From: a virus
DNA: 64,000 nt
Strand: one strand, 5' to 3'
Virus record (IMG/VR): IMGVR_UViG_3300037225_001188
Span: 32,001 to 96,000 of that record
Under the pieces are notes generated by a model. That model saw only the letters and a list, made by a program, of their open reading frames with translations, had not been told where the DNA came from and searched no databases. Positions 731 through 44,958 of the stretch are shown one piece after another. The first letter of the stretch is position 1, and each line of letters starts with the position of its first letter. A program made the translations under genes and the position numbers.

Positions 731-1684
731 ATGCCAACCCTCTTCGTCGTCGACGGCCCGCACGCGCTGTTTCGCTCGTGCTACGCCCACGCCGAGCTGA
801 CGTACGAGCGGCGCGGAGAGCTGCACAAGTCGGGCGGCGTGTTCGGGTTCGTTCAGATGATCCGCTGCGCCCACCGCGACCTCGGCGGCGACGCCATCGT
901 GGTCGTCGCGTGGGAGGACCCGCGGCGCCACGAGCGCAGCGTCCGCCGGCTGCTCTACCCGGAGTACAAGCAGAAGCTCAAGCCAGAGGACGAGGTCGAC
1001 TTCGGGGTCGTCGAGCTGCGTCAGTTCGTGCGCGAGCAGCAGAAGCTCCTCTCTCCGGTCCTGACGAAGATCGGCATCCCGCAGGCGTTCGCCCCGGCGT
1101 GGGAGGCGGACGACGTGGCCGCCGTGCTGTGCCACGAGCTGGGCGAGCACGAGGTCATCCTCCTCAGCGGCGACAAGGACTGGTGGCAGCTGGTCAGCGA
1201 CCGCGTCACCGTCATGCGCCCGCTGAAGGAGGGCTACCAGCTCGTCACGCCGAAGGTCTGGGAGGAGGAGCACAAGGTCGCCGTCACGGCGTGGCCTCAG
1301 GTCTTGGCCCTGGCCGGGGACGACGCCGACAACATCCCCGGGGTCAGGAACATCGGCTTCAAGACGGCGGAGAAGCTGCTCGCCAAGCACGGCGGGCTCG
1401 AGGGCGTCATCGCCGCGGCCGCCGGCGGGAAGGTCGAGCGCTTCGGCCTGAAGAACTTCGACAAGCGCACCGGCGCCGAGTGCCCCGGCATCGCCGAGAT
1501 GCAGGACCAGCTGCGCCTCAACTTGAAGCTCACGACGCTCAACCGCAACGCCGACCTCATCTGGACGAAGCCGGAGCAGGATGAGGACGAGGTGGCGCGG
1601 AGGTTCCGCGAGATGAAGTTCGCCAGCTTCACCTCATACGCCGACCTGCAGAGCGTGATGAGCATGGGGGTGGCGTCGTGGTGA
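731..1684 (+). CDS. 5'-3' exonuclease / flap endonuclease (Pol I N-terminal, T4 RNase H-like)
   Basis: VVDG, YPEYK, EADD, SGDKD and GDDADNIPGVRNIGFKTA (H3TH) motifs. Confidence 0.93.
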   Translation: MPTLFVVDGPHALFRSCYAHAELTYERRGELHKSGGVFGFVQMIRCAHRDLGGDAIVVVAWEDPRRHERSVRRLLYPEYKQKLKPEDEVDFGVVELRQFVREQQKLLSPVLTKIGIPQAFAPAWEADDVAAVLCHELGEHEVILLSGDKDWWQLVSDRVTVMRPLKEGYQLVTPKVWEEEHKVAVTAWPQVLALAGDDADNIPGVRNIGFKTAEKLLAKHGGLEGVIAAAAGGKVERFGLKNFDKRTGAECPGIAEMQDQLRLNLKLTTLNRNADLIWTKPEQDEDEVARRFREMKFASFTSYADLQSVMSMGVASW

Positions 1685-1888
1685 AATACCCGAAGACCAT
1701 CATGTGTGCGATGACCGGGAAACGTGAGCCGGCCGAGTTCCACATCACCAAGCTCTGCCGGTTCTACGCCGGGCAGCCGTACAAGCCGTCGCTCGGGAAC
1801 GGCCCGTGCCACGACCTCTGCACGGTGCCGAAGCGGTTCGAGATCGTGCCGCTGGCTAAGAACGACGGCGAAGCGTAAGCTCGCCCAC

Positions 1889-2557
1889 ATGAGCACGACC
1901 GCCCGCACGATCGCGTCCGTCCTGGCCGGCGGCATGGTCTTGGCTGCCCCGGCGCAGGCGCAGGCGCCGAAGCATCTACACGTCGAACACCACCGCAGCG
2001 CGGCACCACCAGCTTCGCGTCCCGTGGTGGCGCGCGGGGAGCTGGATGAGGGGCTGGTCTACCGGCTCACGCAGCGTGGCAGGTACGACGGTGCAATCGC
2101 CGATGCCGCAAAGAGGTGGGGCGTGTCCCCATTCCTCCTGGCCGGGCTGCTCGAGCATGAGAGCGGTCGTACTCCGAAGGTCGAGAACCGAGCGTCAGGG
2201 GCGCGAGGGATAGCGCAGTTCGTCCCGTCCGGCGCCGCCGCGGTAGGGAACCTCCAGCGCCGCCGCGGGGCCAAGAGCCCGTTCAACTACCGCAAAGCGC
2301 TCGACCCAGTGGTCTCTATCCACGCGGCCGCCGAGCTGCTCGATTACCTCAACGACGTGTGCCGCGGGGTCGCGTTCGGGGTCGAGGTCATCCTGGCCGG
2401 GTATAACACCGGGAGCTGCCGCGCCAGGGTGTCGGGCTTCGTGCACGGGGTCATCAAGCAGGCCAACCGGCTACGGACGATGAGCGGGCTGCCGCCCATG
2501 CCGCCGCCGAGGTTCTGGTGGCGGCGCCGCACCCTGCAGCGTCAGCCAAACTCGTAG
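1889..2557 (+). CDS. Lytic transglycosylase (SLT domain) with signal-like N-terminus
   Basis: LAGLLEHES (catalytic E), SGARGIAQF, LAGYNTG motifs. Confidence 0.88.
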   Translation: MSTTARTIASVLAGGMVLAAPAQAQAPKHLHVEHHRSAAPPASRPVVARGELDEGLVYRLTQRGRYDGAIADAAKRWGVSPFLLAGLLEHESGRTPKVENRASGARGIAQFVPSGAAAVGNLQRRRGAKSPFNYRKALDPVVSIHAAAELLDYLNDVCRGVAFGVEVILAGYNTGSCRARVSGFVHGVIKQANRLRTMSGLPPMPPPRFWWRRRTLQRQPNS

Positions 2558-2602
2558 GGCTGCGGAGCCTCGTCGCGAGGCGACTCCGCGAGGAGGCAGA
2601 CG

Positions 2603-2920
2603 ATGGACGAGACCGAGCAGAAGAGCGTTGCGGGCGCTGGTGACTACGCCGCGGCCGAGGGCGAGATCTCCAGCTACCAGGTCGACGCCGACCAGGTGCA
2701 CACGCTGGACGCCTGCGACAAGCACATCGAGTTCCTGAAGGAGGAGGTGGTGAAGCGCAGCCGCCTCCTCGAGCGCACGCAGCAGGCGAAGAAGGACGTG
2801 ATGGCCGGGTGGCGCGACGTCCTCAAGGTGCAGAAAGAGAGCCTCACCGACAGCCACGAGCGCCTCGGCGCCATGGAGGACCGCAAGCGGGTCCTGGCGG
2901 CGGGCAGCAGCGAGTCGTAG
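2603..2920 (+). CDS. Hypothetical coiled-coil protein
   Basis: GGAGG RBS; typical codon usage. Confidence 0.6.
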   Translation: MDETEQKSVAGAGDYAAAEGEISSYQVDADQVHTLDACDKHIEFLKEEVVKRSRLLERTQQAKKDVMAGWRDVLKVQKESLTDSHERLGAMEDRKRVLAAGSSES

Positions 2921-3478
2921 CCGTGCGGCTCAGGCTCATCAAGAAGGACGAAGACGGCGACGAGGTCGTCGTCGAGACGCTTTGGATCAAGAGCGTCATC
3001 GGGTTCACTCCGAGCCAGTTGATCGTCGTCAAAGGGAAGACGTACTTCATCGCGGTCATCAAGAACCTGCTCAACGGCGAGGGCTTCGACGTCGACCTCA
3101 CGGTCATCGACGTGCCGCCTGCGGCTGCCGGGAGCTTGATCGCAGCCACGGTGGCGTGATGTCGATCTACAACCACATCAAGGTGGAGCGTTTCATCAAG
3201 CTGGCGGTCGAGGTCTACGACCGTTGCAGCCTGCTCCTCCTGGCGGCCAGGCTGGTGCAGGACGGGGACTCGGGGAGCATGCCGCCGACGAGTCTCAGAC
3301 CGACGAGCGGCGACTGGCCCGAGACGCTGCTGCTGAGGACGTGGATGACGGCAACCCCGTGGGAGCGCGCCAACATCCTGTACAAGTTGGCCCCGTTGGC
3401 GCATGCTGCGGCCGAGGCGCGGGCCACAGAGTGGGTCGCCAAGGCCCGGCGGCTGGACGACATCGAGGCAGGGTACCC

Positions 3479-6100: not shown

Positions 6101-7337
6101 GATCTTTGTCTACCGCGGCTCGCCGTTGACCACGACCAGCACGTTCCTCGGGCTGAACCGGCCGGGGCTCGCCAGGTCGAGCAGCCTCGCCACCATGATG
6201 AACGCCGTCGTCAGGAGGGCGATGCTGAGCCAGGCGAGCACCTCGATGACGACCGGCTCGCCGGAGCACAGGCGGCGCATCGAGGCCATGACGGCGAAGT
6301 CGGCGGCGAGCGTCGAGGCGTAGAGGAGCCGGAGGTACGTGCGCTTGCTCACGGCCGCGTCAGCTTCGGCGCCTCGTGCACCGTGATGCTGTTCTCGCTG
6401 CTCGAGTGCTGCCGGTGCGCTAGCGACTGGATGCTGCGGTGCTTGATGACCATTTCGGCCCCGAACTGCTCGCCCTCCACCCACGGGAAGATGAGGATGA
6501 CGGCGGTGTTCAGGTCAATGGTGGCCGGCATGGGATCGGTGCTTGCGTAGAACTTACAGCCGTCCTTGTCGAGCTTCCCCTGCAGGTCGATTCGGATCTG
6601 GTTCGGCATCAGCTACCACCTTTTTTCCTCTGCCCGTGCTCCTTGAGCCACTGCTCGACCACACACTTTGCGACTTCTTGCGACGTGAAGTGGCCGGGCC
6701 ATTCGTGGTGCTGGCCGCGGCACCAAGCCTCGGCGGCGAAGAGCCCGTGGATGCGCCACCACACGGCCCCTCCGGCGCCGACGTTGACGCCGCGGCCGTT
6801 CATCGCCTGCGAGCCGATGAGCAGGTCGGCACCGTCAGCCGTCCACCTACGCCGCGGCATCGGGGTCTTCGTAGCTGACGTCGAGACCGGCGGCGTCCAT
6901 AACGTGAGCCAGGGCCCTGGCGCGCTGCTCGTGCAGCTCCTTCATCGGCACTACTTTTTCCCCGGCCCACGTCCTGACTAAGTAGATCTCATCGTGCAGG
7001 AGCTGGCGCAGGACCTTGCACTCGTCGGGGGTGATGACGTTCCCGATGATGACGACGTCGCGATTGAGAAGGTCCTGGCTCACCGGCGTCTCGTTGACCA
7101 GGAACTCGAAGTCCTCGGTCTTTCGCGGCACCAGGCGGCCGCCGACGACCGCGCCGTCCCTGCGGACCACCAGCACGACCTCAGCGTACTCGCCGCACTC
7201 TAGGAATTTCGCCCGCTCCTCCTCACCCCAGCCGAGGCGAGAAGCCATGCTGCCCCACTCGTCGGGGTCCTTGATGTCGCCGAGGCGGACGGTGGCCGCG
7301 ACCTCGATGTCGGCCGGCATCTCGATCTGGTCCATGT

Positions 7338-8132
7338 TCACCCCTCCTCGTCGAGGAGCTTGCCCGAGTCGACCACCTTCGCCAGTGGCGGCACCAGCTT
7401 CGCCCGCCGCCCCCGCAGCCGCTCGACGTCGGCCTGGTACCGGCGGTATCGCCCGTCGCTCTTGGCGAGGTCGACGGCGCCCTGGTACTCCACCTCGGTC
7501 GTGCGGACCCGGTCGCGGGCCTCGTCGGCGTCGAGCTTCGCCAGCTCCTCGGTGAGGTGCTCGGCGCGCACGAGCAGGTCCTTGGCCTCGGCGCGCAGTT
7601 CGTGGATCCGCTCCTCGCAAGCCTCAGCCATGACGAGCAGCGAGTCGTGCTCCTCTTCCAAGGCGGCCTCGTCGACCAGAGTCTGCTCAACCTCGGCCTG
7701 CACCTTGGCGATGGCCTCGTCGCGCTCGACCTTGAGCTGCGAGATGACCTTGGTGCGCTCGTCGACGTAGCGCTGCTTCTGGGTGATGACCTCGTCGATG
7801 CGCTCCACCTGCAGCTCGAGCGCGCTCTTGCCGTTGGGTTTGGGCGGAGGGGAGAGGTAGCCTGGCTGGACGTGCTCCTTGCGCAGGAACTCGGCGAGCT
7901 GTGACAGGATGCAGGCGCACGGCTCCAGCTTCTCTTTGTCCTTCTTGTGCTTCGCCCCGGGCTGGTACGTCAGCATGAGGCCGGGCTCGTTGGTGAGGCA
8001 GCTCTTGCACCTGGGCCGCGGTAGCACGGCGTAGCGGCCGGCGGCGTCCCCCTTCTCGATCTTGATGGAGTGGTAGCCCTTGGGCGGGTCGAGGTCGTCT
8101 GGGATGCGGATGACGGGCGTGACGGTGGACAT
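7338..8132 (-). CDS. Hypothetical protein, CxxC...CxC plus long coiled coil
   Basis: ORF with RBS; heptad-rich C-terminus. Confidence 0.65.
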   Translation of the reverse strand: MSTVTPVIRIPDDLDPPKGYHSIKIEKGDAAGRYAVLPRPRCKSCLTNEPGLMLTYQPGAKHKKDKEKLEPCACILSQLAEFLRKEHVQPGYLSPPPKPNGKSALELQVERIDEVITQKQRYVDERTKVISQLKVERDEAIAKVQAEVEQTLVDEAALEEEHDSLLVMAEACEERIHELRAEAKDLLVRAEHLTEELAKLDADEARDRVRTTEVEYQGAVDLAKSDGRYRRYQADVERLRGRRAKLVPPLAKVVDSGKLLDEEG

Positions 8133-8156
8133 CAGCGTCTCCTCTTCTTTCCACGG

Positions 8157-32018: not shown

Positions 32019-32056
32019 CGGCCGAGCAGAGCAGGAGTCGAACCCGCGCTGCCCGG
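32019..32056 (-). ncRNA. tRNA-like minihelix 6
   Basis: CCGGGCAG-C-GCGGG-TTCGACT-CCTGC-T-CTGCTCGG-CCG. Confidence 0.7.
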
Positions 32057-33158
32057 GGTGCTGCAGGGTTTCCGGGGCTCCGAGCCCCGGCGCTACTCAA
32101 CCAACTGTCGAGCTGCCTCCTTGAGGATGCACACGCCGGCGCCGAGCCCAAGCCAGTCTCCGCACGAGCGGAGCTGCTGGTCGACCTCCGGCCCGAGCAT
32201 CGGGACCAGCGCGTCCCAGCGAGCGAGCGGGATGTCGTTGAAGCTGTTGGTCTGGTCCTTCTCCTGCGGCAGCTTGAGCGACAGGACGGTGATGCGGAAT
32301 GCGACAAGCTGCCGCACCCCAACCGTGACGAACTGGGAGTAGTACTTGCGGTGCCGCTGCTCCGCCTCCTCCCGAGAGATGAATGGGGCCATGTACTCCT
32401 TGCGGGTCATCATGCGTTATCTCCTTGACCGGCGGTCCATCCGCCAGTCGATGTAGAGCCAGAGGAAGCCGCACCCGGCCAGCATGCAGACTTCGAGCAT
32501 CACGCCACCCGCCCCTGGCTGGTGGCGGTGATGACGATGCGCTCGAAGACCGACGCCTCCGGGTCCTCATCGTACTCCACCCCGCCGTCCTCGCTGCCGC
32601 GGTAGGCCACGGCGGCCGCCCGGGACCAGCAGATGACGTCGAGGGTGACCGACTCGCCGCGGGAGAGGCAGAGCGCGACCGCCAGGCCGGCTGCCTCGTT
32701 GGGGTCGTCGCACACCTTGGTTTGGGCTTGCCCGTTGGTGAAGTCGACGTGGTACTCCAGGTCCTTGTGGCCGGCCATGCTAGCTGCTCCGCTTCCCGCT
32801 GGCGGAGATGGCGGCCATGGCGGCGCGGGAGATGGCCACCTCGGCGGCCTCGGTCGGGATGACGCCGCTGCCCATGGAGATGCGGCCGGCGTTACCGACC
32901 AGCTCCACGATGCTGAAGCGGCGCTCGCTCTCCGTGATGACCAGGGACAAGGTGTCCCCGGTCAAGGTCTCCAGGCGGCGCAGGGCGGAGGAGTACTTCG
33001 AGGTCAGGTGGATGTCGGTCATGGGGTTCCTTCTCCTGCCTCGACGGGCAGGTGGGACAAGGTGTATGCTGTCTGGGTGAGCTGATAAAAGTCGGGCCGC
33101 CCCTGGACGCAACTCCAAGAGCGGCCCTGATCAACCAGGTCCCGGGAGGGCCTAGCCG

Positions 33159-35959: not shown

Positions 35960-38190
35960 AAATAGGTTGGCGGTTATAAACCGGTGGCACGTCCACCCTG
36001 GATTGCTAGGGCATAAAGTACAGGGGTAGTACGGTATATCTCAGGACACACTACTCCCTTGGGGGGTGGCCCTGCTAGGTACATGGTACTAGGTACATGG
36101 TACTACGGCCTATATGTAGGCACACTACTCCCTACATGGTAGGCTAGTCTCTGGCCCGTCTGCTCTGCAAGGTTGACGGTGCCGTCTCTACACGCGCGGG
36201 AGTACTCTAGGGGAGTACTCTACCGCGCCAGCTTGAATCGCGCGTCATCAAACCGCGCGAAGTGCGCGCGATTGCTCATTTGGTGCCGCACTCGCCTTTG
36301 AGGCTAGCCCCTGACTGGTGAATCCCAGTCTAAGCGTGCGGCAGACACCTTAGCCTCGCGTTGTGTGACCCTCTGCTAGCGCACAACCATGCCTAGCTAT
36401 CTCCAGCCTACATGGGGTAGCTACACTCCCACAAAGCCTGCTAGACTCGCTGCACGCGGCACGTTCGAGTCACCCAACGTTCGCTCAAGTGTCTTACCAC
36501 GGTATCGCCTAGCTACCCGTGGCCCCTTCCCTCACTCGCCCGGTACGCTACCTCTGGGAGTGTTCTCGCCTCGAAAGGCTCGACTCCGACGATAGACCGG
36601 TTAAGGGGAAGGTGGCGATTCAATTGTCATAGAACGTCGGTTTGCGATGCTCCGAAGCTACGCTGCTAGCGTGCCACATCGTACCCTCACACTAAGACGC
36701 CTCGACCATGTGCTACAGGCTATCTCCTGGCTTATACTCCAGGGTGCTCAGGTATCGGCTGTCACTAGCCCGACTCCTCCGGTATGTCGCTGCCTCTGTC
36801 CCTTCCACGCGCTTATCGCTTGTGGACCTGAGGCACCGTTTACCTAGCTAGGTGGTGGTTTCCTTTCCCCACGTGCGATAAGCGCCAGTGGTAGTCGCGT
36901 ATGCTCTACCGCGTACGAATGCTGCGCGGTATGTCGCGTTTTTCACGCTACCGGGGGCCATGTGGCGCCCATGGTAACCGTCGAGATAGCCTTGCTCAGC
37001 CGCGCGATATCCTGGCATGTAGGGGCCAGAATCGTCGGGGCGGCGGATGAGCTGCGCTTGATGCTTAGCTCGCATCCTCTTCTGCACCATGACTGGATTG
37101 GCCATGGTTTACGCTCCGAATCTACGGCTAGCCGTGCGCACTATGCGACGGCTTGAGTAACTACCGTGTAACCCGTGGTTAACGTCTAGCGGGCTGGCAT
37201 TGCCGCGTGCTGCGTGGGCGTAGTCTGCAAGCCAATGCCGCGTGACCTTACGGCCCGTCCGGCACTTCCCACCGAGCAAGGCGCCAGCTACTAGCGCGAT
37301 GATGACGAGGAGTGCCATGCTAGGTGTCCCCAAGGATACGCGCAACGGCATCGGCAACCGTGGGTGCCCACACCGCGTGACCAGCGTGGTAGGCTTCCAC
37401 GATACCGGAGTCGAGGCGCATAAAGGTCCAATCTTCCGCAGTATCGGCAGCGAGCTTGGACGCTATGGCGTGGCGCGCGGAAGCCAGGGGGCTTTGCTCT
37501 GCCGTGTGTGCCGTCGCGTTAACCATGCCAGGGAAGCATTGCAACGTCAGGGCCAGGAAAGTGTGACTGCGATATCATGAGCTTGCGCGGTTTAGGTGAG
37601 GTCCAGACTCCCACCATTGACGGCCGGCGCGAGAGTGAGGCGCGAGAGATATTAAGGCGTTGCGCGATCTACATTGGAAGCATGGGGATAAATCCCCATA
37701 GGCAAGGCATTGGGACGACTGCGGTTTGCGGAGCGATAGGAACCATCGCAGGGAAGGGTGGGGGAGAAGACCCCACCTATAGTCATTTCCGCCATACGTT
37801 GCAATACGTTCTGATATGTAAAGCCTACCTACATGTACCCCTTTACATATGGTGTCTTGAGCCCCCAATTGACACGCGCATTGTACACCATACCTACATG
37901 TACCCCTTTACATATGGGGGCGCCAGCCCCCATCTACTAACCGATGGTCATGTGACCTGTGCCTGTTAACCGTCGGTCGTATCCTATCGACCGGAGTGAT
38001 ACGGGTGCAACGTCGTGATATTACTAGCGTGCGCTCATGTACTCCCTACTGTATGCCGTGCTACCGTACCCTTACAGACGCTCCGTCCTACCAGCTGGGG
38101 CCTAGAGGCTACTTGATCATGCTCGCGCGCACAGAATAGTTTTCAAACTACGTTCCAAGTTTCACGCCTCCTTCAAATCTTCCCTCGTAC
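35960..38190. other. Lower-GC, repeat-rich divergence region (control region, origin or genome end)
   Basis: Gene orientation flips here; few credible ORFs; CTAG-rich; short direct repeats. Confidence 0.6.
37826..37917. repeat. 27-bp direct repeat pair
   Basis: TACCTACATGTACCCCTTTACATATGG at 37826-37852 and 37891-37917. Confidence 0.9.
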
Positions 38191-39501
38191 GCTTCAGCAT
38201 GAAGAACCTCAAGCACTACCAGCGAGCCTATGATTCTAGGCGCCGTCCTAACCGCTCTCCGGATGCATTGCTCTCCGACGTCCTAGACAAGGTTGCCACC
38301 GCCCACACCATCCTCGAGCCCGACTTCACCCCAGGCAAGGATGCTGTTGCCGCCACCCTGCTCGAGCTGGTCTACGCCTTCGAGCGCCTCGACTCCTGGT
38401 TCTCGCACGGAGGGTCTAAGCCGCGGCTCTGGGCCAGGAAGAAGCTGCAGCATACCTCTCCCGTTTCTCCTGACGAGGTAGAGGTCGTGGTCTCCAGGCG
38501 CGGTCTTCCATGTCCCCTCAGCGGCGTCGAGGTCACTCTCACTGGAGAGTCCCAGGAGTTCGCGTGCCCGTGTGGGGCGATGTTTCAGGTCACCGGGTTG
38601 AGGACGCTCTTGATCGGTGTGCACCTGGCACAGCTGTCGTGGTGGTTCAGGACGTACGGCGACTTCATCAGGCCTTAACCACAGCCTTCCTCTCCAGGTT
38701 CTCGCGCCTCGCGCAAAACCCATCTCGTACAGCTTCTTACCGCCGCAGGCCTTTCACCTATGAGGCCTGCTTCACCAGGCGGTGAGGGGACTCTTGAGTG
38801 GCGATAACCATGCGCGGCGCCCGCGACTTCGTGCTCTGCGCTGCTGGCTGGGATGGCTTGGCACTTGATTAGGAGGAAGGCGTGAAAGTTCGCGAGCTGG
38901 TAGAGAAGCTGCAAGCCCTGCCGCAGGACCTCGACGCGTACGTTCAGGAGGGCGACTCGCCTAGCTACGCCTACCGGGCGGTCGAGTCCGCGGTGCGGCC
39001 GGCGGTGATCTCCGATGACGGGCGGCTGGCTGCGCTCCTCGCGGGTCGTCGTGAGGGGACCGTGCTCGACGGGGGTCTGAACTTCCGCGACGCCATGTCC
39101 GATGCCCTCCAGCGTGAACAGCTTCAGCGAGCGGTTCAGGGTCTTCACGATCACCGGCGTCGGGGGTCGACCGCGCCCGTCCCTGACGGCCTTGGCGACC
39201 TCGCCCTTGACCAGGCTGCGCAGCTCGCGGACCGACAGCTCCTTGCTGAGCGACACCATCGAGGACAGCTTCAAGGAGAGCGTTTGCCGGCCACGTCTGC
39301 GAAGACGACGAGCGCTTCGCGGTCGGAGACCGTGTCTCCGTCGGGACCTCAGACGAGGCGGCGCCTAACGCCACCGTGCAGAGCCCGCCGTTCACGGAGC
39401 GCGGCAAGCTCCGCATCTTGTTCGACGGCAGCTCGGTCACCTACGACATCCCGCGCTCGCTCTGCAAGAAGATCTGAAAATCCTCTCTCGTACACTTCCT
39501 C

Positions 39502-40281
39502 ATGAAGCCTGATCGACCCCGCCTCTACCGCGGCCGCCCCGTCCGGCCGAAGGCTGCGGCCGACCGGCCCGGCCGCACGGGCAACCCGCTCGTCGCCGTC
39601 GGGTACATCCGCGTCTCGAAGGATGAGCAGGACCTCTCCCCCGAGGCCCAGCTCGAGGCGATGGAGGGATGGTGCCGCGGCCGAGGCGTCGTCCTCGCCT
39701 CGTGGCACGAGGACCGCCTCTGCAGCGTCACCGCGGTGGACCAGCGCCCCGGGCTGATGGAGGCGCTCGAGCAGGTGCAGGCGCTCGGGGCCGGCGTGCT
39801 CCTCGTCGCCAAGCGCGACCGCCTCGCCCGCGACCCCATCATCACCGCGATGGTCGAGCGCCTGGTCGAGCGCGCCGGCGCCCGGGTGCAGTCCGCGGCT
39901 GGCGAGGGCACGGACGGCGACGGCCCGGTCGACCAGCTCATGCGGCGCATCGTCGACGCCTTCGCCGAGTACGAGCGGGCCCTCATCCGCCAACGCACCA
40001 AGGCCGCGCTGGCCGTCAAGAGCCGCCGCGGGGAGCGCGTCGGGGGCGTCCCGTACGGGTGGCGGGTCGCCGCGGACGGGGTGCACCTGATTCCCGACGA
40101 GGTCGAGCAGCACATCATCAAGATGGCGAGCGAGCTGCGCGACCAGGGGCAGTCGCTCAACGAGGTCTCGGACTCGCTTGCTCGCTTGGACCTCGTCTCG
40201 CGCCGCGGGGTCCCGTTACAGAAGATGTCGATCAAGCGGATGGTGAGCGGGCGGAGGCTCGCCCAGGTGGACCTGACTTGA
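39502..40281 (+). CDS. Serine recombinase (resolvase plus short recombinase domain)
   Basis: GYIRVS, RPGL, VAKRDRLARD, FAEYER..IRQRTK, GGVPYGW. Confidence 0.92.
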   Translation: MKPDRPRLYRGRPVRPKAAADRPGRTGNPLVAVGYIRVSKDEQDLSPEAQLEAMEGWCRGRGVVLASWHEDRLCSVTAVDQRPGLMEALEQVQALGAGVLLVAKRDRLARDPIITAMVERLVERAGARVQSAAGEGTDGDGPVDQLMRRIVDAFAEYERALIRQRTKAALAVKSRRGERVGGVPYGWRVAADGVHLIPDEVEQHIIKMASELRDQGQSLNEVSDSLARLDLVSRRGVPLQKMSIKRMVSGRRLAQVDLT

Positions 40282-40425
40282 TCGTCTGTGACCACTGCCG
40301 GCAGAGCGTGCTCGCCAGGCGCCGGGTCGTCTGCCCGCACTGCGACGCCGACCTGTGCGAGGGCTGCTACGACTCGCACCGCTGCCACGGGCGCGAGGAC
40401 GCCTGCCGCTGCCGAGAGGAGAGTC

Positions 40426-41694
40426 ATGCTCCAGACCGACCTGCTTGACCGCATCGCCGCAACCACTAAGAAGAACGAGAAGCTCGCGCTCCTGAAACAG
40501 GTCGAGGGGGAGACCCGCGAGCTGCTGCGTCTGGCGCTCGATCCGATGGTCACCTTCGGGCTCACCGTCGCCGAGTGCACGAAGCATGGCTGGAGCGGCG
40601 ACCCGCAGGAGGTCCAGCATGAGCTGCTCCAGGAGGCGGAGTGGTGGCCGGTCCTGACCGACCTGGCCTCCAGGCTGGCGTCGCGCAGCTTGACCGGCAA
40701 CGAGGCGAAGGAGGCGGTCCACGTCGTTTGCCAGTCGGCGCCGAACGCCGCGGCCGCGTTGTGGGCGTCGCGGATGCTCAACAAGGATCTCCGCGCCGGG
40801 GTCGCCGGCGGCATCGTCCTCGACGCCATCCCCGACCTCTACGAGGAGTTCGAGGTCTGGTTGGCGAAGCCGTACGAAGACCAAGAGCTGCCAGAGACAG
40901 CAGTGCTTGAACGCAAGCTTGATGGGTTACGCATGGTAGTGATGGGAGGCAAAGCCTTCACGAGAAATGGGCACGTCATCTCATCAGTCGATCCGATAAT
41001 CGAGCAACTACCAGATCAAGTTCGTAATAAATTCGTAACCGACGGTGAGATCGTTGGAGCCGAGTTCGATGATACTTCCGGTCAGGTGCGACAAAAGAAA
41101 GGACGAGCATCTGAATCGCTCGTGTACAATGTCTTTGATCTTATCTCCTTGCAAGAGTGGAAATCGCGAGACACAGCTATTCTTCTAGAGCGGAAAGAAA
41201 TGATGACCGAGTTGCTCATCCCATATCAAACTGAGAATATCGGCGTTGTTCCGTGGGACATTGTCAAGAATATAACAATTGAAGTAGCTATCGCTAAACG
41301 CGATAATTACTTGAGCCTCGGGTACGAAGGCGTAATGATCAAGGACGCATCGAGTCAGTACGTGTGGGGGCGTAACAACTCGATGATGAAACTCAAGAAG
41401 ATGGACAACCTCGATGGCATCGTCGTCGGCACATATGAAGGGAAGAAGGGTAAGACTAAAGGCAAGCTCGGAGGTCTGAGCGTAAGACATTCTGGCAAGA
41501 TCAAAGGCGGTCTCGAAGTCGAAGCCGTGACCGATGTCGGTAGTGGATTCACTGACAAGCAACGTGTTGAATTGTGGGCAATGCGTGAGCAGCTTGTCGG
41601 TTGGTGTGTCGAGATTCAATTTCAGAACTTCACGTCAAAAGAAGGAAGAATGCGCTTCCCGGTCTATCTTGGAAGGCGTCCAGATAAAGAATGA
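40426..41694 (+). CDS. ATP-dependent DNA ligase (phage type)
   Basis: ERKLDGLR (motif I), DGEI, FDL, YEGVMIK, MKLK, VGSGFTD, RFPVY. Confidence 0.95.
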   Translation: MLQTDLLDRIAATTKKNEKLALLKQVEGETRELLRLALDPMVTFGLTVAECTKHGWSGDPQEVQHELLQEAEWWPVLTDLASRLASRSLTGNEAKEAVHVVCQSAPNAAAALWASRMLNKDLRAGVAGGIVLDAIPDLYEEFEVWLAKPYEDQELPETAVLERKLDGLRMVVMGGKAFTRNGHVISSVDPIIEQLPDQVRNKFVTDGEIVGAEFDDTSGQVRQKKGRASESLVYNVFDLISLQEWKSRDTAILLERKEMMTELLIPYQTENIGVVPWDIVKNITIEVAIAKRDNYLSLGYEGVMIKDASSQYVWGRNNSMMKLKKMDNLDGIVVGTYEGKKGKTKGKLGGLSVRHSGKIKGGLEVEAVTDVGSGFTDKQRVELWAMREQLVGWCVEIQFQNFTSKEGRMRFPVYLGRRPDKE

Positions 41695-41699
41695 GACTT

Positions 41700-41771
41700 G
41701 GCTCGGCGGGGCTCGGTTAGGCGGGGCTTGGCGCTGCAAGGCAAGCTACGGCTCGGCGTTCCACGGCAAGG
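41700..41771 (+). ncRNA. Phased GGY-NN pentamer array, candidate guide RNA of the adjacent RAMP protein
   Basis: GGCtc GGCgg GGCtc GGTta GGCgg GGCtt GGCgc TGCaa GGCaa GCTac GGCtc GGCgt TCCac GGCaa GG; 11 of 14 units begin with GGY. Confidence 0.8.
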
Positions 41772-41808
41772 GATTCATTTAGTTAGTAGAACGCCAGAAA
41801 GATAATCA

Positions 41809-42384
41809 ATGCTGATCACGATAGAGATCAAGGGTCGCACTCCACTGTTGATGAACCGCTTCGGCGAGGTTCCTGAAGTCGCCACGACCAGCGGGCATGC
41901 TCCGGTTATGACGTCTTCGTCAGAGCGTGGCACTCCACGTACTCAGGCGGAGAAGGCCGCGTACCGCGACGCGAAGACCGGAGAGCTGTTCATCCCAGGA
42001 CCGAACGTCCTCTCGTGCCTTGTCGAGGCCGGGAAGTTCACGAAGGCTGGGAAGACGAAGCTCACGACCCAGAAGTCGACGCTCGTCACCGCCGGTTTGA
42101 TGCTGAACGAGGTCGCGCTCCCGCTCCACGTCAGCGAGTTCGAGGTCGACTCGCGCGGGGTCGTCATCCCGGCTACCGGGGGGCGCGTCATTCGTCATCG
42201 TCCGCGGCTCGACGAGTGGAGTTTGACGTTCTCGCTAGACGTCGACGAGACGATGTTCTCCGAGTCGTTGGTCAGGACGCTCGTCGACGATGCCGGGAAG
42301 AAGATCGGGCTCGGAGACTATCGTCCATCTCGCAAGGGTCCGTTCGGCAGGTTCGACGTGGTAGGATGGAAGGTCGAGAAGTAA
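41809..42384 (+). CDS. Stand-alone Cas7/RAMP-superfamily RNA-binding protein
   Basis: ITIEIKGRTPLLMN (first strand plus TP), LFIPGPNVLSCL (RAMP IPG motif), C-terminal G-rich loop GLGDYRPSRKGPFGRF. Confidence 0.8.
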   Translation: MLITIEIKGRTPLLMNRFGEVPEVATTSGHAPVMTSSSERGTPRTQAEKAAYRDAKTGELFIPGPNVLSCLVEAGKFTKAGKTKLTTQKSTLVTAGLMLNEVALPLHVSEFEVDSRGVVIPATGGRVIRHRPRLDEWSLTFSLDVDETMFSESLVRTLVDDAGKKIGLGDYRPSRKGPFGRFDVVGWKVEK

Positions 42385-42627
42385 CATGCCGCGAGGGCCG
42401 TACGAACACGACAGCCTGACCTTCGCCCCGGACCGGCAACTCGAGTGTCGGGGGTACGGCAAGTGCCTCGACGTCGCGCTCAGCAGCGGTTGGGTGTCGT
42501 GGTGTTGCACCGGGTGCACGAAGTTCGTCGAGCTGACGGCCGAGGAGAAGACCAGCGACATGATCGCCCTGCTCCACATCCTCGGGGAGCTGGAGTTCCC
42601 GCTCGGCATCAAGAAGAGGCACGACCC

Positions 42628-43260
42628 GTGAGGCCGGATCGCTACGACGGCGACCCCGACCTCGACCGCCTTGAGCGCACCGTCGCCGGGCTCGACGGCG
42701 TCGTCGAGATGGCGGTCACGGCCGCTCGCGAGAAGATCGGTGAGCCGACGTGCGCCGGGTGCCGGAGCCCGGGGTGCTGCTACCAGCGCGTGTCGGTGAC
42801 GCTGGCGGAGGCCCTGCCGATCGCGCGCCGGCTCATCAGCCGCGGGTTCGACTCCCCCGGGGTGCGGCGGCGGCTCGCCGGCGAGGGTGAGGAGATGTCG
42901 TCGCGCACGCCAGAGGAGTGGTGGGCGCTGTCGAGGCCGTGCTTCTTCCTCGGCGAGGGGCGGTGCTCTATCTACGACGTGCGCCCGGTGGCGTGCCGCG
43001 CTCGCTTCTCGTGGAGCGACCCGGAGTTGTGCCAGCCGCCGGCCGTCAGCGACGTCGTGACCGTCGACATGGTCGGCGCCGCCCGAGCCGTGGTGCAGCT
43101 CAACCTCGAGCTGTGCCGCGGCCTCGGCCTGAATGACGTCGTCACCTACGCCGGCGCCATGCCGCGGATGGTGGCGGTCGCGCTCGAGGCGCTCAGCAGA
43201 GACACCGCCGCTGCCGTCGAGTACCTATGGGGGCTGGAGTTTCCGATCGCGGGCCGCTGA
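42628..43260 (+). CDS. YkgJ/FliB-family cysteine-cluster protein
   Basis: CAGCRSPGCC ... PCFFLGEGRCSIYDVRPVACR. Confidence 0.85.
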   Translation: MRPDRYDGDPDLDRLERTVAGLDGVVEMAVTAAREKIGEPTCAGCRSPGCCYQRVSVTLAEALPIARRLISRGFDSPGVRRRLAGEGEEMSSRTPEEWWALSRPCFFLGEGRCSIYDVRPVACRARFSWSDPELCQPPAVSDVVTVDMVGAARAVVQLNLELCRGLGLNDVVTYAGAMPRMVAVALEALSRDTAAAVEYLWGLEFPIAGR

Positions 43261-43847
43261 GCCGTCAAGCAAAACCTCGCGACGTACACCTCGACATGAA
43301 GATCAACGACCCGCTCGAGGCAGTCCGCGAGATCGACGGCAAGGTCAAGGAGGCCCTCTCCGGCGTCGAGCCTACCGGCGAGGTCCGGTCGGCCGTCACC
43401 AAGTATCTGCTCGCGATGGCGGCGACCGTCGCGAGGTCCGCCGGGGCCAGCGTCAGCGACTACCTGGAGGAGGCTCGGCAGACGTGGGACGAGTCAGCCG
43501 CGCCGCAGCAAGCGCCGACTGCCGAGCCGGCGACCATCAACTGATGCGCCAGGTCGTCACTATCAATGTGGTCTCCGGGTCCCCGAGACCGTGGACGTTC
43601 TACACCGTCTACCAGCTGCCGGACCTGAGCTACGTCGCCTCGCGGCGCAGCGAGGTCGACCTCGGGTGGCGGCTCGGGCAGCTCATAGGCCTCAAGGACG
43701 GCGAGATCGTTGGCTACGTCGCGACGCTTAGGACGTGCGGTGATGCGCAGAGCTGGTCCCACGTCTTCATGTGCGGGAGCCTCATCGTGGTTGAACCCGA
43801 CGACTACTCTCAGGGGATACCGACCGTGCTCTATCTGAAGGTTGATG

Positions 43848-44057
43848 ATGCGTGACAGCGACCCGGTGTGCGAGTTCCAGGTGAGGGTGAAGCGAACGAC
43901 CGACGCAGCGATCTGCTGCCACGTTGAAGGCGTCGCGGAAGACGTGTGGTTCCCGAAGTCGCAGATCAACCTTGACGATTCGGACGTCAGCGAAGTCGGC
44001 GACACCGGGTCATTGATCGTCAGCGAGTGGATCGCGCTGCAGAAGAACCTGATCTGA
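43848..44057 (+). CDS. Small conserved phage protein
   Basis: TTDAAI...VWFPKSQI...VSEWIALQKNLI. Confidence 0.7.
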   Translation: MRDSDPVCEFQVRVKRTTDAAICCHVEGVAEDVWFPKSQINLDDSDVSEVGDTGSLIVSEWIALQKNLI

Positions 44058-44064
44058 ACGGAGG

Positions 44065-44958
44065 ATGAAGATGTCTGAGAAGCGCAAGCGCACCGCGATC
44101 GACGCCAAGCGCGGCGTCGTGTTCTGGGTCGAGCAGGACAAGCTCACCCTCATCACCGACGAGTCACGCCCGCTGTTCGACCCGTCGGCGCTCTTCTCAC
44201 CCGACCCCGAGCTGGTTCAGAGCCTCATCGTCGAGGGCCAGGTGCAGGAGTTGCTGGCCCGCCGCAACGGCCCGCTGCTCGAGATCATCGACGGCAACCG
44301 TCGCTACAAGGCCGGCTGCCTCGCTGGCAAGAAGCAGGGGCGGCCGTTCGTGTTCCGCGTCCGCGTGGTCGACGCGGCCAGCGACGCCGAGTTCTACCGG
44401 ATGAAGCTGGCAGCCAACCTCCACAAGAAGGCGCCGCCGACTGTGGAGGCACAGCGCATCTCGCGCTTCCTCAAGGCCGGCGGGACCGAAGAGGAGGCGA
44501 TGGTCGCCGTCGGGGCGAAGAGCGTGACGACCGTGCACAACAAGCTGGCGCTGCTGCGCTGCTGCGCCAAGGTCCAGCGGATGGTCGACTCCGGCGAGCT
44601 GACCGAGACTATTGCGGTCGAGCTGTCGGGCCTGACGCGCGAGAAGCAGGAGCAGGCGGTCGATGAGATGGAGAAGAACGGGACGCTGCGCGGCGAGGTC
44701 GCGCGGCGGTCGGTGAAGGCAGCGAAGAGCGGCAAGAAGCTGCCGACGAAGGATGGGCCGCGGCCGCTCACTCAGTCGAAGCTCGAGAAGCTCTCCGACG
44801 AGCTGTCGAACTACGCGGAGTCGAGCGACTTCGTCGCCTTCATCGCCCTCATCCTCGGCGACGAGAAGATGTTCGAGGACCTGCCGTCGTTCGTGAAGGC
44901 GGCCTACGACTCGGTCACGAAGGCCAAGAAGGTGTCCAAGGAGAAGAAGGCGGCGTAG
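44065..44958 (+). CDS. ParB-like protein
   Basis: LVQSLIVEGQVQ, IIDGNRRYKA, downstream HTH-like segment. Confidence 0.8.
   Translation: MKMSEKRKRTAIDAKRGVVFWVEQDKLTLITDESRPLFDPSALFSPDPELVQSLIVEGQVQELLARRNGPLLEIIDGNRRYKAGCLAGKKQGRPFVFRVRVVDAASDAEFYRMKLAANLHKKAPPTVEAQRISRFLKAGGTEEEAMVAVGAKSVTTVHNKLALLRCCAKVQRMVDSGELTETIAVELSGLTREKQEQAVDEMEKNGTLRGEVARRSVKAAKSGKKLPTKDGPRPLTQSKLEKLSDELSNYAESSDFVAFIALILGDEKMFEDLPSFVKAAYDSVTKAKKVSKEKKAA

Follow-up and report, generated by a model that had tools for sequence, protein, structure and literature searches.

A Minimal VIPR System, Predicted from Sequence and Structure Modelling, behind a Phage DNA Ligase Gene Whose Composition Changes inside the Best Self-Match of the Guide

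The stretch of DNA analyzed here (the window, 64,000 nucleotides) comprises bases 32001-96000 of the virus record IMGVR_UViG_3300037225_001188, a single 130,793-bp contig. It carries a gene for an ATP-dependent DNA ligase, followed at once by a short array of 5-nt repeats and then by a gene for a small Cas7/RAMP-fold protein. We found that the composition of the ligase gene changes abruptly after codon 150, and that the module behind it is, as predicted from sequence profiles and a structure model, a minimal VIPR (Viral Interference Programmable Repeat) system consisting of one guide RNA (vrRNA) and the gene vipr. The best match of this guide in its own genome lies across the composition change, and a better match is predicted in the ligases of related phages. 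The features concerned are given below, with positions counted from the first base of the window.

40426-41694, + strand: ATP-dependent DNA ligase gene, 422 amino acids (aa), protein P0001 (list of open reading frames, Pfam, PHROG 114)
40426-40875, + strand: 5' part of the ligase gene, codons 1-150, N-terminal domain; genome-like composition, GC content at third codon positions (GC3) 0.933
40876-41694, + strand: low-GC 3' part of the ligase gene, codons 151-422, adenylation and OB domains; GC3 0.522, GC 0.48
40876-41944, no strand assigned: low-GC3 tract, putative recombination patch (change-point analyses; left end sharp, right end bracketed)
40843-40886, - strand: footprint of the best self-match of the guide, 20/30, best in the genome, on the junction
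41698-41772, + strand: predicted vrRNA repeat tract, 15 NN-GGY pentamers, beginning 3 nt beyond the stop of the ligase gene
41773-41808, + strand: A/T-rich tail and leader, reaching the start of vipr
41809-42384, + strand: vipr gene, 191 codons, Cas7/RAMP-fold VIPR-family protein (profile, model, PHROG 4652)

The ligase protein matched DNA_ligase_A_M (PF01068) over residues 155-324 (E 7e-13) and an OB domain (PF14743) over residues 341-417, both above the cut-offs, and it belongs to PHROG 114, ATP-dependent DNA ligase (E 7e-87). Every family-invariant residue was kept in an alignment with 17 relatives, namely the K164-L-D-G adenylation motif and 69 further common columns. The maximum-likelihood change point of GC3 fell after codon 150 (Y150, 40873-40875), with a log-likelihood gain of 43.1 for the drop from 0.933 to 0.522; change points at 40867-40891 lost no more than about 1.7 log units against the best, giving a precision of roughly +/-4 codons. 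A fall in GC from 0.60 to 0.46 accompanied this at codon positions 1 and 2, and thus the low-GC make-up reaches the ligase protein, beyond its synonymous sites. Of 157 related ligase genes, none reached a gain of 37, and the maximum was 14.2; the step is therefore not a property of the ligase family. A chimeric gene with such a step near 40876 was what an earlier note, made from the DNA letters alone, had described, and the measurements agree with it. Moreover, 40751-41966 is the lowest-GC island of the whole genome (400-bp windows; minimum 0.45, genome mean 0.666) and is among five listed stretches below 0.55 GC, two of which overlap.

Low GC3 continues through the end of the ligase gene and the intergenic stretch with the array, again as the note had claimed. 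The best right boundary was 41944, inside vipr (gain 67.4 vs. 57.1 for a boundary at the vipr start). Considering that low-GC3 gene starts also occur in controls (in 5 of 24 control genes GC3 was at most 0.71 over the first 45 codons), the right end is only bracketed, at about 41773-41944. The GC3 of vipr was 0.79 (0.83 beyond its first 40 codons), which is below all 24 control genes (at least 0.87), yet far above the 0.52 of the ligase 3' part; the neighbouring genes range from 0.90 to 0.95.

At the junction itself, the alignment showed an intact reading frame and two codons fewer after Y150 than in relatives. The carrier reads EVWLAKPY-EDQE, and its closest relatives P0003 and P0004 read EVFLAKPYDPDK. 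W145, on the native side of the junction, was unique among the 18 aligned sequences, the relatives showing F, A, G, Q or S. The locus was also present on contigs of other samples (X2 to X5). The X3 contig, from a run of another study, spans the left junction (40652-41037) with 0 differences, and the X2, X4 and X5 contigs span the right side (41713-41932, 41855-42183 and 41900-42136) with 0-1 differences; stretches without contig cover in X2-X5 carry no information. An alternative ligase allele was absent among the contig matches listed for X2-X5, and the sequencing runs listed for this DNA include no RNA run.

The ancestry of the ligase was investigated in its two halves. A search with the ligase alignment yielded 80 viral and 80 metagenome loci among the matches listed, and the closest identity among these 160 was 46%. 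No locus was returned from the viral contigs with the carrier ligase protein alone, and only the contig of locus L002 with P0004. The protein database held no relative more than 60% identical over residues 1-150. In this N half the carrier is 57-60% identical to P0002-P0004, nearly their own mutual closeness there, and its similarity to P0003 is about that of P0004. The free trees grouped both halves beside P0002-P0004. In the N-half tree the window ligase was sister to these three (Shimodaira-Hasegawa-like approximate likelihood ratio test, SH-aLRT, 99); its terminal branch in the C-half tree measured 0.97 vs. 0.03-0.08 for P0002-P0004. When the window ligase was forced outside P0002-P0009, the N-half tree became 28.7 log-likelihood units worse (approximately unbiased test, p-AU 0.0475), and the C-half tree became 3.09 units better than the free tree (p-AU 0.587). 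A difference in history between the halves, which the note had supposed, was thus borne out in part: the halves are not cleanly congruent, the constraint being costly only in the N half, while both free trees still place the gene beside the same relatives. P0003 and P0004 are 82-100% identical in C-half windows, where the window ligase is 39-66% identical to both. Because the half-specific trees and the composition combine in this way, the best reading is that the ligase gene is a recombinant, in which a foreign 3' allele from an unsampled donor would have been joined in frame.

The relatives have a pattern of their own. P0003 and P0004 are only 51-79% identical in N-half windows, as against 82-100% in C-half windows, and their identity switches about 30 residues upstream of LAKPY. 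The same two ranges hold for P0002-P0004 compared with each other; the three look mosaic too, and recombination near this domain border appears to recur.

VIPR is a class described in preprints of 2026, with Escherichia phage SUSP1 as the type example (bioRxiv 10.64898/2026.04.26.720920, 10.64898/2026.04.26.720927). According to these two preprints, Vipr is a small RAMP protein with a single RNA recognition motif and a G-rich loop, which coats a guide RNA of YNNGG pentamers (Y, pyrimidine; N, any base) that pairs by its NN bases alone. The array has at least 4 and typically 9-16 units with conserved GGY and variable NN, and each unit passes over one base of the target, usually the wobble base of a codon; both strands can be targeted, with no protospacer adjacent motif. 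A vrRNA of this class is expected to be expressed at a length of about 100 nt and to purify together with Vipr, in a complex that represses a matching target; the characterised systems bind and silence transcription without cutting. Natural targets are called at an NN match of at least 80%, and no self-target that high is reported in any system examined there. The guides prefer conserved, wobble-aligned coding sites, SUSP1 R-loop formation starts at the guide 3' end, and nuclease accessory genes occur in some VIPR types (bioRxiv 10.64898/2026.04.26.720920, 10.64898/2026.04.26.720927).

The gene downstream of the array fits this class. A profile of 35 homologues matched PDB 36pp_D, "SUSP1 Vipr protein" (E 2.3e-10); the match extends over 42-182 of 190 positions and takes in the GxGDxRP...FG(R/K)F loop. 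An AlphaFold model (predicted local distance difference test score, pLDDT, 83.4) had Csm3/Cas7 subunits as its top Foldseek matches (E 6e-7 to 4e-5, template modelling score 0.41-0.56). The protein falls in PHROG 4652 (function unknown) and has no Pfam match; among its 1580 homologues at E<=1e-3, the best 120 are 57-65% identical and bear no family name. The nearest neighbours of residues 1-45 and 46-191 differ, at low power (correlation -0.15, 119 proteins). No nuclease domain was detected in vipr or the four downstream genes with Pfam, PHROGs, NCBIfam or PADLOC, and PADLOC reported no other cas gene or defence-system model at the locus. The protein database entry for vipr of this genome is a 138-aa protein (P0130) that covers 65% of the query at 100% identity. 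Since homologues (187-203 aa) align over the entire 191-aa frame, the public gene call starts too late.

The array keeps an intact GGY/GG in 12 of its 15 units and lies on the vipr strand, its end 36 nt from the start of that gene, within the 114-nt spacer between ligase and vipr. A simple caller found exactly 1 GGY/NN array in the 130,793-bp genome, 115 in 80 loci with Vipr homologues, every one on the same strand as vipr, and 0 in the 160 control ligase loci listed (1.42 Mb). The array stands directly before vipr in 28 of the 80 related loci, often with a GGCAAGG ending as here, and GGYAAGG occurs at the 3' end of 64 of the 115 related arrays vs. 49 of 189 internal windows. Because this ending is common in this Vipr clade, units 14-15 are probably a conserved handle, and the guide proper probably consists of units 1-12 or 1-13. 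The minimum-free-energy fold joins the last units and the tail by a 7-bp stem (41757-41763 with 41789-41795); this fold was no better than shuffles (z -0.48), and the tail structure is thus unproven. Scanning the + strand from ligase to vipr for promoters and terminators gave nothing usable and no terminator-like site between the ligase stop and the array, which together with the 3-nt spacing makes co-transcription plausible. Identity as a CRISPR array was rejected. The repeat unit is 5 nt, the repeat finders found no 24-48-nt repeats with spacers and saw only a 22-nt pair (73% identity) in 41700-41771 with no longer-period array, and there was no Rfam match. The earlier suspicion of an RNA-guided module made of array and RAMP gene was well founded, given the 36pp_D profile match, the Csm3/Cas7 fold and the GGY/NN array.

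With the published one-base-skip rule, the guide was compared with every position of the entire genome in both strands. The best self-match (20/30) straddles the composition junction. Units 4-12 match 17/18 over 40852-40877, codons E143-E151 (EVWLAKPYE), and units 1-3, on the low-GC side (40879-40886), match only 2/6. The lower-GC part thus starts at the guide-matching site and the match breaks at the junction, two statements of the note that hold. The skipped bases of the core land on codon third positions, and its sole mismatch lies at W145. The total self-score was not significant, since 20 was reached by 44 of 200 shuffled guides; the 17/18 run of nine units was reached by 0 of 300 shuffles, so that the contiguous-run statistic alone is significant. 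Expressed as proportions, 20/30 is 67%, and units 1-12 give 19/24 (79%), borderline under 80%.

Read as codons, antisense and wobble-aligned, the guide spells E-V-(F/L)-L-A-K-P-Y-(D/E)-P-(D/E)-(K/N); ligases of this family conserve this motif as a linker where the adenylation domain begins. The match to relatives was predicted from protein, taking NN as codon positions 1-2, and the motif was located in 38 of 120 homologues. The predicted scores were 24-25/30 for P0003 and P0004 and 22-23/30 for P0002, compared with 19-20 for self (20/30 measured on DNA). Over all positions and orientations in 119 homologues, the top predicted match was P0003 residues 135-146, with 24/24 over units 1-12, and 60 shuffles reached a maximum of 19. 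The best-scoring DNA loci fall at the homologous ligase site: the nine 5' units match 18/18 in the ligases of loci L082, L241, L249 and L250, which are about 40% identical to that of the carrier. L241 and L250 DNA matches 21/24 there over units 1-12, and the best real DNA at the ligase site scores 21/30 over all 15 units. The 9-unit pattern was found in 11 viral stretches, 5 of them within ligase homologues. The other 6 had no ligase match (four share one sequence with a stop in the expected frame, and two more are alike) and were treated as chance, since about three chance matches are expected for 17-18 fixed bases.

The same layout was observed at other vipr loci. In L234, a 17-unit guide (3059-3143) stands 10 nt behind the carrier's own lambda-type portal gene (1609-3048; Pfam) and before vipr. 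At the NYASGRLD motif of the portal protein this guide matches L227 and L228 at 29/34 and L237 at 28/34, and the own copy at 22/34, with a maximum of 25 in 200 shuffles. In L212, a 12-unit vrRNA (6364-6423) lies 21 nt before the carrier's own DEAD/ResIII helicase gene (6445-8142). It matches the helicase motif VNVLTTGFDAP at 20-21/24 in 10 other vipr loci; the own helicase reads ANLLTIGFDAP and scores 16/24, and 200 shuffles reached at most 19. The first nine units of this guide make the match and its last three (..ACGGCAAGGCAAGG) never do, for which reason they look like a conserved handle. Thus in all three cases with an identifiable target (ligase, portal and helicase) the guide adjoins the carrier's own diverged copy. 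In L212 and L234 the mismatches to the own copies are scattered along the guide. The related loci gave 78 guides of 11-20 units, 6 of which reached shuffle p<=0.03 in their best self-match (about 2.3 expected); 5 of these 6 matches lay within 460 nt of the array. A by-eye count placed 27 of the 78 best self-matches within 1.1 kb, vs. about 25% expected, which is a weak excess. In L234-type phages vipr separates the portal gene from the next one downstream.

In view of these findings, our proposal is that the guide, which spells the ligase motif of related phages, is directed at the ligase gene of a rival. In a shared cell, a Vipr-vrRNA filament would bind the rival ligase site, block transcription and so handicap the rival. 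The carrier would escape for two reasons: its allele after Y150 would be foreign, with two codons missing and EDQE replacing DP(D/S)K, and W145 replaces F. Since the guide stands 3 nt behind the escape allele, weapon and immunity would be inherited together. A recombinant that had the guide together with an unaltered ligase end would silence its own ligase, which could explain why the junction lies inside the footprint, placed there by selection rather than by chance. We consider it probable, though with real reservations, that the locus is a linked weapon-and-immunity unit in which the linkage between guide and escape allele was selected. For the earlier idea of a guide tied to a resistant allele and aimed at relatives, the predicted 24-25/30 as against 20/30 for self speaks in its favour, and the silencing of rivals is a step that we infer. 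In a bolder form of the proposal, guide and escape allele would be linked killer-rescue units that spread as short gene-conversion patches, the bound R-loop triplex itself provoking recombination in the footprint. We think this doubtful. If it were true, the junction at 40876 would be a scar made by the VIPR system, and the process would be a nuclease-free, RNA-guided analogue of homing and a missing route for the gain and exchange of VIPR guides.

Several points weigh against the proposal. Target DNA matching at least 80% over all 15 units was not found, and the exact pattern of units 1-12 occurred in 0 viral and 0 genome contigs. The best real DNA over 15 units scored 23/30, in four contigs with one identical sequence; these matched no ligase and fit a chance origin. 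The 24/24 is a prediction from protein, which assumes leucine encoded as TTR (R, purine) and the last 3 units as non-guide, and the vrRNA itself is likewise predicted from sequence. The nearest relatives are not siblings likely to meet this phage, being just 57-60% identical in the N half. The nine near-perfect units of the self-site are at the guide 3' side, where SUSP1 unwinding starts. Immunity of the carrier is not assured, because with a 12-unit guide the self-match of 19/24 (79%) is just under a heuristic threshold. The search for guide-target adjacency used 5-kb flanks, which bias it towards nearby genes. Moreover, the coincidence of junction and footprint has a possible common cause, because a conserved motif suits a crossover and a guide alike. 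A single joint transfer of ligase 3' part, guide and vipr is not indicated, because the GC3 of the ligase 3' part (0.52) differs from that of vipr (0.79), which implies that there were at least two transfers or two donors. The one travelling cassette of the note is thus shown only in part: the guide lies inside the low-GC stretch with the ligase end, and the composition does not tie vipr to them. The neighbourhood of ligase and vipr also occurs nowhere else in the sets compared, with vipr at 0 of the 160 ligase loci listed and ligase at 0 of the 80 vipr loci.

Such a common cause is unlikely to be the whole explanation, although it deserves to be taken seriously. In that case LAKPY(D/E)P, as the stretch with the highest conservation near the domain border, would have served as crossover point between divergent ligase genes and, independently, as guide target because it is hard to mutate, with no selection for an antidote, and the adjacency would be an accident of insertion. 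The 18/18 match of the nine 5' units in ligases about 40% identical indicates that the stretch is widely conserved, the preprints describe conserved, wobble-aligned coding sites as favoured by guides, and the halves of P0003 and P0004 differ in history too, so that recombination at this border recurs without a known VIPR. On the other hand, P0003 and P0004 switch about 30 residues upstream of LAKPY and not at it, the guide adjoins the carrier's own diverged target copy in three independent cases, and the core holds an additional non-synonymous difference, W145, on the native side and unique among 18 aligned sequences. The core could also have a use at home. With nine good units the filament might sit at 40852-40877 and throttle transcription through ligase, vrRNA and vipr, as a feedback or timing switch. 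The core scores 17/18 at the guide 3' side, where SUSP1 unwinding starts, the 12-unit self-match reaches 19/24, and the array follows the ligase stop by 3 nt with no terminator-like site on the + strand between. Nevertheless, relatives fit better (24/24 predicted vs. 19/24), for which a self-regulator has no reason, the L212 and L234 guides likewise fit others better, and the preprints report no self-target of at least 80% in any system examined. We regard self-regulation as quite improbable.

Homing in the strict sense, in which the module would cut the rival ligase gene and repair would then transfer guide and resistant allele to the rival, is very unlikely. The low-GC tract is indeed shaped like a conversion patch, running from inside the target site through the guide, and some VIPR types have nuclease accessory genes according to one preprint. 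Yet vipr and the four genes downstream show no nuclease domain in Pfam, PHROGs, NCBIfam or PADLOC, no neighbour gene of the window recurs by vipr in the 80 related loci, the only HNH-like reading frame lies 3 kb upstream, beyond the recombinase gene and outside the tract, and the characterised VIPRs, as described, silence by binding and do not cut. For these reasons the homing-endonuclease analogy drawn in the note is not supported. There is, at last, the scenario of an artefact, in which metagenomic misassembly joined two phages at a conserved ligase motif. The record is derived from a metagenome and the junction lies within such a motif; however, native composition resumes after about 1 kb, the frame and all invariant ligase residues are intact, and contigs of other samples run across the left junction (X3) and across the right side (X2, X4, X5). 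Because both tract ends are bridged in this way, we treat misassembly as excluded and the scenario as hardly credible.

Compared with known systems, the VIPR system found here belongs to a class already in print. Like SUSP1-type VIPR, it has a small, phage-borne RAMP-fold Vipr homologue, a tandem YNNGG array next to vipr on the same strand, a guide that, when one base is skipped for each unit, reads codon positions 1-2 of a conserved coding motif, and a best self-match below 80%. Unlike the published VIPRs, it has a single guide directly upstream of vipr and no vap accessory gene recognisable with Pfam, PHROGs, NCBIfam or PADLOC; instead of the SUSP1 pseudoknot, its 3' end consists of GGCAAGG and a short A/T-rich tail of unproven structure. 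The predicted target, the DNA ligase of related phages, also differs, and so does the recombinant state of the carrier's own target gene, with the junction in the footprint. Solo or vrRNA-targeting vrRNAs, as described in the main text of a further preprint, match self less well than they match rivals; they target vipr genes, other vrRNAs or satellites, and their carriers often lost vipr (bioRxiv 10.64898/2026.10.15.759431). As in those cases, self and non-self would be told apart here by divergence of the carrier's own target copy, the guide is wobble-aligned and the rivals would be close relatives. Unlike those cases, a replication gene is the predicted target, vipr is kept by the carrier, the guide adjoins the escape allele, and a composition step marks the origin of that allele.

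The word "ligase" is absent from the main texts of bioRxiv 10.64898/2026.04.26.720920 and 10.64898/2026.10.15.759431, and "homing" is absent from the main text of the latter, where "mosaic" occurs once in another sense; these statements concern the main texts and not the supplements, which may list ligase targets or guides adjacent to their targets. Within the same limits, none of the three main texts describes the ligase target, the junction inside the footprint or the layout of a guide beside an escape allele. Compared with CRISPR-Cas, the Vipr model shares the fold of class 1 backbone subunits (Cas7/Csm3), whereas the locus has a 5-nt repeat unit, no array of 24-48-nt repeats and spacers, and no other cas gene.

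Free-standing homing endonucleases of T-even phages cause marker exclusion and co-convert a resistant neighbouring allele. The locus would resemble them in being a selfish element beside a conserved essential gene that attacks the allele of relatives and is linked to a resistant one, and in having a foreign patch that begins at the target site. It differs from them in that recognition would be by an RNA guide, not by a protein, and no nuclease was found. Since the expected action is silencing, the spread of VIPR would rest on killing or handicapping non-carriers and on ordinary recombination, not on break repair.

Two questions about VIPR concern how guides originate and spread without an adaptation module, and how a carrier spares its own copy of a shared target gene. 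The locus offers a concrete and testable answer to both. If the proposed linkage is true, VIPR modules would be linked weapon-plus-immunity units that drive mosaicism in ligase, portal and helicase genes, and an RNA-guided system would be tied to the long-known patchwork structure of phage genomes. Even if it is not true, the locus is a clean new member of VIPR whose predicted target is well defined.

The surroundings of the locus include two further annotated genes.

39502-40281, + strand: serine recombinase gene (Pfam Resolvase, E 1.6e-29)
44065-44958, + strand: ParB-like gene

Small genes of native composition stand downstream of vipr, before the ParB-like gene. Two Cys-rich genes follow vipr directly (42386-43260, + strand): the first is an 81-aa Cys-rich open reading frame without a family, and the second has a putative metal-chelating CxxCxxCC domain (PF03692, E 1.7e-5). 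Neither matched a vap-like family in Pfam, PHROGs, NCBIfam or PADLOC, and none of the neighbour genes of vipr in the window, these two included, recurs beside vipr in the 80 related loci. A small Cys-rich frame with a CxxC ... CxxC ... CxxC pattern (40283-40448, + strand) occupies the gap from recombinase to ligase and reaches about 20 nt into the ligase gene; a 26-base insertion is present at 40362-40380 in the X2 and X3 contigs. The HNH-like reading frame (38199-38678, + strand; GC3 0.78) has a weak PHROG 865 match (E 1.5e-6, residues 21-85) and no Pfam match, and is part of a lower-GC stretch (36000-39000, GC 0.58-0.61) with short tandem repeats at 36075-36222.

Comparison of 39400-43300 with the phage collection gave no match by blastn, and only relatives about 30% identical by tblastn. 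The X2-X4 contigs are 4-11% different from the window in the recombinase and ParB genes (39454-40487, 43915-44338), and 0-1 base different, where covered, over 40652-43507, which holds the ligase, the vrRNA, vipr and the next genes. This difference between block and flanks is a strain-level mosaic, which fits a shared block and does not prove transfer. The sole tRNA called in the window by ARAGORN was a tRNA-Pro (CGG) at 32023-32118 (- strand), which at 96 nt is longer than an ordinary tRNA.

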